This document shows positions 1 through 161 of a DNA stretch of 14,524 nucleotides, one piece after another (within the stretch, counting starts at the first letter, position 1; the number at the start of each line of letters is the position of its first letter). Under the pieces are notes generated by a model, which was given only the letters and a program-made list of their open reading frames with translations, made no database searches and was not told where the DNA came from. Where the stretch lies: assembly GCA_041288095.1 (NCBI GenBank), contig JBGGMJ010000173.1, positions 1 to 14,524 on the forward strand, in the 5' to 3' direction. The position numbers were made by a program, and so were the translations under genes. Source of the stretch: Myxococcota bacterium (GTDB taxonomy: Bacteria > Myxococcota > XYA12-FULL-58-9 > JALHOP01).

Positions 1-161
1 CTGTTCAGGTCGAAGCAGAGGACCTCACCGAGGTCGCCGCCGATGCGCTTGTCGACGGAGCCGGACATCGTCCCCAGAATGCCGTCGATGAACGTACCGA
101 TCTGGACGAGCTTCGCCTGTCCGCGCAAACGGACAACGACGTGCTCCGCCGCGTCGACGCT
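1..161 (-). mobile_element. Putative intein (N-terminal splicing region) inserted in frame in GyrB; truncated by the window edge
   Basis: After RYHKIIIM the expected TDADVDG is absent. The frame continues without a stop as [30 protein letters not shown]...EVLCFDLN, resembling Ser-initiated intein block A and the following region. Confidence 0.8.

Follow-up and report, generated by a model that had tools for sequence, protein, structure and literature searches.

The gyrB gene at the edge of the window (the whole 14,524-nucleotide stretch analysed, i.e., the entire contig C173 of the Myxococcota assembly G000) is very probably interrupted in frame by a class 1 intein of about 435 aa, one that is likely self-splicing and whose homing endonuclease is likely dead. 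The contig end falls inside this insert. On the minus strand, the frame 1697..3 is open for 565 codons and runs off the contig end, where 2 bases remain. GyrB reads ...RYHKIIIM up to the Met codon at 164-162, and 53 intein codons follow, ending ...EVLCFDLN at base 3; the first-pass annotation was exact in stating that GyrB homology ends after RYHKIIIM with the frame staying open. The features of the gene within the window are as follows:

1..161, minus strand: start of the intein, its first 53 codons plus 2 bases out of about 435 aa (79% identity to residues 1-53 of the intein of congener G001)
159..164, minus strand: N-terminal splice junction, Met(-1)|Ser1 (placed by empty relative loci and a bridging run contig)
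162..1673, minus strand: gyrB N-extein, comprising the ATPase, the transducer and the first part of the TOPRIM domain (Pfam and PRK14939)
351..380, minus strand: GyrB EGDSAGG|SAK-site motif, intact and with no insert (from the sequence)

The N-extein carries the Pfam domains HATPase_c, DNA_gyraseB and Toprim (1-64 of 96 positions) and matches the NCBIfam model PRK14939 with E = 7e-267. Its start is likely the TTG at 1673, as suggested by the start of the ORF in congener G003 together with an upstream AGGGGG; a second in-frame TTG lies at 1697. Taken alone, the 53-residue intein piece in the window matched no Pfam or NCBIfam family. The window alone therefore could not prove an intein, and the proof comes from a second contig, C14, and from the congeners.

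A six-frame motif search for TDADxDG, covering all 212 contigs of G000, returned a single match, on the 2647-base contig C14, right behind ...VYDFSVDTDENFIAGLGGVCCHN (ending CCHN). The first-pass annotation had predicted that HN and then TDADVDG would be met beyond the window, and CCHN|TDADVDG is what C14 reads. This contig (locus L001) opens mid-frame with 380 intein codons up to the terminal Asn, followed by a 308-aa GyrB C-terminus:

C14 98-109: block B, TASH (from the sequence)
C14 197-454: insert domain of 86 aa, lying before the LAGLIDADG domain
C14 455-949: degenerate LAGLIDADG domain, about 165 residues retained
C14 1073: block F, VYDFS with Asp-F4 (from the sequence)
C14 1130-1141: CCHN, the intein C-terminus (from the sequence)
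C14 1142-2065: C-extein of 308 aa, where the GyrB profile resumes

The intein part of C14 shares 83% identity with residues 56-435 of the G001 insert. In both G001 and G003, gyrB is in one piece and holds a 435-aa insert at the same site, and the two contig ends of G000 fall in the adjacent codons 54 and 55 of this continuous frame. Comparison with the congeners, from which the in-frame join is drawn, implies that the stretch missing between C173 and C14 would be about 3 bases and that the frame would be kept. The PRK14939 profile matches residues 19-513 of the window protein with its positions 6-501 and resumes at position 501 with residue 381 of the C14 frame; hence no GyrB residue was lost or duplicated at the insertion site.

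The insert lies between the Met and the Thr of M|TDADVDG, a motif that carries the DxDxD metal ligands of the TOPRIM domain. With the C-extein as query, 30 loci were fetched out of 61 genomes. In 26 of them M|TDADVDG is uninterrupted, so that intein-free alleles of the kind to be looked for in relatives do exist, and four (G000, G001, G003 and G059) read HN|TDADVDG. The insert behaves as an intein, being in frame, absent in homologues, and followed by host sequence that resumes exactly at the same boundary. Within the order, 3 of 22 genomes carry the intein, all of them in the genus of the window; the other 19 gave no match to it, and 12 relatives of the order have an empty site. Across our sample of the phylum, where no more than three candidates per genome were scored, it was present in 4 of 401 genomes. 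Wherever a gyrB was found among the congeners (3 genomes), the intein is there. A further member of the genus, G002 (94% complete), has gyrA and gave no gyrB match with three queries, which is probably an assembly gap. We take the Ssp GyrB intein to be positioned at AGG|SAK; in the window gyrB, EGDSAGG is intact and no insert follows it. The first-pass annotation already took the two sites to be distinct, and some proteins have a separate intein at each, as in P0244, where the AGG|SAK insert measures 435 aa and the M|TDADVDG insert 552 aa.

Profile and structure searches agree on the identity of the insert, which the first-pass annotation had called intein-like: Pfam, NCBIfam and AlphaFold/Foldseek together give a Hint domain and a LAGLIDADG domain. 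The 380-aa part on C14 matches Pfam Intein_splicing (PF14890) at E = 1e-13 (51.8 bits against a cut-off of 35.8) and LAGLIDADG_3 at E = 9e-5 (23.1 bits against 22.5). With this piece, from which the intein N-terminus is missing, the NCBIfam model TIGR01443 scored above its cut-off and TIGR01445 scored 24.2 against 24.5. The AlphaFold model of the G001 copy has a mean pLDDT of 93.4 and a pTM of 0.92; its best Foldseek match is PI-PkoII (2cw7, E = 7e-27, TM 0.74), followed by the Tli and Pho VMA inteins and PI-PfuI, and these matches extend over most of the intein. A PF14890 search found no other intein in G000.

Class 1 inteins are defined by Cys or Ser at position 1, Cys, Ser or Thr at +1, and a C-terminal Asn (PMC4031507). 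The G000 intein has Ser1, TASH (Thr-B7, His-B10), Asp-F4 (in VYDFS), a terminal His-Asn (CCHN, with His-G6) and Thr+1, and is of this class; the Ser1 start and the role of the displaced Thr as the +1 residue, both proposed from the window, are seen in Ser1 on C173 and HN|T on C14. Class 2 and class 3 are ruled out, there being no Ala1 and no Cys at F4. A mini-intein is ruled out as well, given that the LAGLIDADG domain is still matched and about 165 of its residues are retained.

We aligned 137 same-site inteins, namely those with parseable junctions (113 of the 120 proteins listed in the search with the G001 intein, and 22 of 29 loci), minus one G003 duplicate and plus G001, G003 and G059; the set contains some near-duplicate rows. 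All 137 have Ser1, Thr-B7, His-B10, Asp-F4 and the final Asn, the final residue being partly fixed by the parsing pattern, and 133 have the penultimate His. In four (P0010, P0111, P0116 and L046), Lys-Asn or Arg-Asn takes the place of the terminal His-Asn, as it does in 25 of the 119 parsed proteins among the matches listed in a search with the Planktothrix copy.

The intact splicing residues, together with the need for an intact gyrase, lead us to predict splicing. Following the class 1 mechanism (PMC4031507), Ser1 would undergo an N-O shift aided by Thr-B7, His-B10 and Asp-F4, the N-extein would be transferred to Thr+1, the terminal Asn would cyclise with the aid of the penultimate His, and an O-N shift would leave an ordinary Met-Thr peptide bond. 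Splicing after translation would restore the TOPRIM metal-binding motif. Because no other gyrB was found in the assembly, gyrase likely depends on splicing, and obligatorily so in G000. In each of G000, G001 and G003, a single match to the GyrB family and a single match to the GyrA/ParC family were found; in G000, tblastn with the window protein as query returned C173 only. No second type IIA B subunit was found in G000, an assembly that is 90% complete and from which an intein-free gyrB or parE could be missing. Topoisomerase IV was not found in G000, G001 or G003, each having one GyrA/ParC and one GyrB/ParE gene, and the gyrA of G000 is on contig C37, not beside gyrB.

As for the nuclease, the LAGLIDADG blocks that the first-pass annotation thought possible are there in the form of the domain; both catalytic acidic residues are lost, and the element is probably no longer mobile. 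Both acidic residues are kept in 123 of the 137 aligned inteins, one is lost in 9, and both are lost in 5. The G000 motifs read LLGLSHGAAF and VRAWLASSGG, with Ala and Ser in place of the acids, against LLGFYLAEGS and LRGYLLGDGT in intact copies; both residues are absent too in G001, G003 and the metagenomic P0005. With both gone, the G000 copy does not qualify as an active LAGLIDADG homing intein. The same clade (G000, G001, G003 and P0005) is without a segment of about 100 aa found in 101 of 137, for which a number of relatives have precomputed PF01381/PF13560 matches. We assume these to be helix-turn-helix families and the deleted segment to be DNA-binding; the extra segment of G059, scanned alone against Pfam, gave no match, and neither did the 86-aa insert domain on its own. 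The 435-aa copies are the shortest of the 137 aligned inteins, whose median is 570 aa. Since both acidic residues are lost and the segment of about 100 aa is deleted, this copy is likely immobile and, within the genus, vertically inherited.

Three congener pairs, which are not independent, were compared by a simple counting method at a GC3 of 0.85-0.91, giving a dN/dS of 0.24-0.41 in the nuclease domain (where bootstrapping put the upper bounds of pN/pS at 0.47-0.65), 0.09-0.27 in the 86-aa insert domain, 0.13-0.26 in the N-terminal and 0.03-0.21 in the C-terminal Hint part, and 0.05-0.19 in the exteins. Intein dS was 0.39-1.63 against 0.50-0.75 for the C-extein. In all three pairs, the N-extein dS (window 162-1640 compared with L031 and L032) was 0.28-0.38, about half that of the C-extein. 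These substitution patterns indicate that selection on the nuclease domain is relaxed, not absent. By analogy, the residual constraint on the dead nuclease probably means that the domain must fold for splicing to proceed, as some Hint domains depend on a nuclease scaffold (PMC8966425).

The same constraint could be read as a sign of domestication, in which splicing would be conditional on redox, metal, temperature or the state of the DNA and would gate the only gyrase of the cell; we consider this quite improbable. Such gating would account for the persistence of a nuclease-dead insert throughout the genus, and it agrees with the sole type IIA B subunit found, with the occurrence of the intein in all 3 congeners where gyrB was found, and with purifying selection on both the dead nuclease and the insert domain. 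Conserved cysteines lend themselves to the idea (the VLC Cys in 130 of 137 inteins, and two Cys before His-Asn in 122 and 100 of 137), and conditional splicing has been reported for other inteins (PMC6195587, PMC7360933). However, residue 1 is Ser, which leaves no trappable Cys, and the cysteines are common to mobile copies, with Ala, Val or Leu in their place in some, which is what buried beta-strand positions would be expected to show. Moreover, 12 relatives in the same order have an empty site, and persistence needs no benefit, for loss must be precise at a conserved site (PMC2814812). It is likewise unlikely that M|TDADVDG is a second, widespread, undescribed GyrB allele whose nuclease-dead form has been domesticated here, with scaffold-dependent conditional splicing gating the sole type IIA topoisomerase.

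A likely self-splicing intein with a likely dead endonuclease remains our preferred reading, and the history of the element bears on it. On the intein tree (FastTree), the four degenerate inteins (G000, G001, G003 and P0005) form one branch with support 100, adjoined by a branch of other decayed inteins, and their hosts form one branch (100) within the otherwise intein-free GyrBs of the order (98); both trees were built by quick methods. They fit a single gain with vertical descent thereafter. An endonuclease-active intein of the widespread allele would have homed into the ancestor of the genus or family, would then have been inherited vertically, and would now be in the degeneration stage of the homing cycle. 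That the endonuclease still nicks or binds DNA, or that the intein still spreads, is very improbable. Structure prediction still gives the LAGLIDADG fold with high confidence, dN/dS is below 1, and the same communities contain empty M|TDADVDG alleles, as loose ends at C14 1142. Yet all four clade members have lost both acidic residues along with the segment of about 100 aa, the Pho VMA intein, which is without the same residues, is inactive (PMC8966425), the same four sequences group together in the intein tree and in the host tree, and the other 19 genomes of the order gave no match.

It is extremely unlikely that an assembly artefact, a pseudogene or a naturally split intein underlies the two halves, so that they would not be one reading frame: the gene does lie on two contigs, whose ends share no exact overlap of 5-299 bases, and window 1-61 and C14 1-43 are uncovered by public-run contigs, but the ends fall in two adjacent codons of the congeners' frame, no stop stands ahead of the break, G001 and G003 are unbroken, and both halves occur in runs X1 and X2 with no differences and at similar low depth. 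A contig from run X2 spans window 62-260 over the N-terminal junction and one from run X1 spans C14 355-1179 over the C-terminal junction, each with 0 differences, although these runs may be source data of the assembly and are thus not independent; no run contig bridges the gap between C173 and C14. A misassembly at about position 161, raised as a concern by the first-pass annotation, is not what the covering contig displays. The gyrB of G000 is thus split by a low-coverage assembly gap and not broken. No RNA data are listed for the window stretch, which says nothing on expression.

The neighbouring genes of the window include:

1777-2922, minus strand: ORF of about 380 aa with CxxCH near its start, no Pfam match
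2919-3575, minus strand: YceI-like protein
3448-3804, minus strand: small lipoprotein-like ORF with CxxCH, weak Cytochrome_CBB3 match
3801-4916: recF, separated from gyrB by three genes
5008-6117: dnaN
8751-10196: dnaA

The ORF at 1777-2922 is perhaps, as a guess, an outer-membrane protein. A response regulator and an AI-2E family transporter (6560-8712, minus strand) stand between dnaA and dnaN. The origin would be expected at 10197-11030, between dnaA and the rnpA-yidC-jag cluster; a strict DnaA-box consensus pattern had no match anywhere in the window.

The M|TDADVDG site is common, not rare, and the intein is real but ordinary. Of 7999 candidates scored in a search with the G001 intein, 457 proteins matched at E <= 1e-10, and the C-terminal junction lies before (T/S)DADVDG in all 120 matches listed (the best 120 of 457). 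The search with the Planktothrix copy returned 447 proteins at E <= 1e-20, most of those with a named source being cyanobacterial; of the 120 matches listed, 119 parse at M|TDADVDG, by a pattern that required Ser1, and among the matches listed at least 53 same-site proteins also carry a Cys-start intein at AGG|SAK. Named carriers belong to Myxococcota, Pseudomonadota, Actinomycetota, Chloroflexota, Gemmatimonadota, Nitrospirota and Cyanobacteriota, besides a record labelled Heliomicrobium. Cultured carriers include Allochromatium vinosum DSM 180 and Thermochromatium tepidum, with close intein-free relatives of 801 aa. Phage and plasmid collections searched with the full-size G059 intein gave no match, and hence no vector. 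Outside GyrB, the nearest relatives are in two Iainarchaeum genomes at 29% identity (L064:2501-4048 and L065:87-566); the protein reads ...HEYTTN|...HN|SLDACEEA, with a Ser start in L064 and Ser+1, and its host looks to us like topoisomerase VI subunit B.

The literature searched, with InBase and subscription journals outside its scope, held no description of M|TDADVDG as a separate allele. The string TDADVDG itself did not occur in the papers listed by a loosely worded search for it, a weak negative. The report of 33 bacterial GyrB inteins (PMC4760082) gives no positions in the sections at hand, its supplement file 2 holding for GyrB only counts and column heads; the 61 intein-containing GyrB sequences removed in another study (PMC9348778) likewise come without positions in the corresponding sections. 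In Soucy et al. 2014 (PMC4071816), gyrB appears with one allele, whose position is not in the part available. WP_019509077.1, in their gyrB list, has inteins at both sites; the M|TDADVDG site was in the sequences that they handled, recognition there not being implied. The A. vinosum accession in that list, YP_003443943.1, is absent among the accessions of the GyrB found here. Inteins prefer conserved sites (PMC2814812), and the T4 gene 60 bypass, a different element, also targets the TOPRIM metal site (10.1101/2022.08.31.505936). For the Desulfonema GyrB mini-intein (PMC6390638), the accessible sections give no insertion site.

In practice, the insert must be removed before this gyrB serves phylogeny or annotation. 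The same-site family presents a series from full-size copies with intact nuclease motifs (about 570 aa) to nuclease-dead copies of 435 aa, useful for the homing-cycle model and for the question whether splicing comes to need a dead nuclease scaffold, and a Ser1/Thr+1 intein might interest protein engineers. If M|TDADVDG is missing from intein catalogues, this is a gap to fill, not new biology. Two points alone go beyond the ordinary: a site that may not have been catalogued, and a dead nuclease that has been retained.

Among known systems, the full-size M|TDADVDG inteins of A. vinosum DSM 180 (ADC61003.1 / WP_012969279.1), T. tepidum, Pleurocapsa sp. PCC 7319 (WP_019509077.1) and Planktothrix share with the G000 copy the site, the Ser1...HN|Thr ends, the Hint blocks and a homologous LAGLIDADG domain; they are 550-572 aa long and mostly have both acidic residues and the extra segment, whereas the G000 copy is about 435 aa. 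The Ssp GyrB intein of Synechocystis PCC 6803 resides in the same host protein and the same TOPRIM domain, but AGG|SAK is empty in G000, and inserts there start with Cys in the homologues seen. PI-PkoII (PDB 2cw7/2cw8), presumably an archaeal DNA-polymerase intein with an active nuclease, is alike in fold over nearly the whole length and in its N-terminal Hint sequence (E = 8e-16), yet only 17% identical. The Pho VMA intein of Pyrococcus horikoshii (PDB 7qst; PMC8966425) also combines Hint with a degenerate LAGLIDADG domain without the block C and E acids and is a structural match at E = 2e-16; unlike ours, it has Cys1, another host and site, and an accessory domain after the nuclease, the 86-aa insert here lying before it. 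In standing at what would be the degeneration stage of the homing cycle, the G000 intein resembles that of Pho VMA (PMC8966425).
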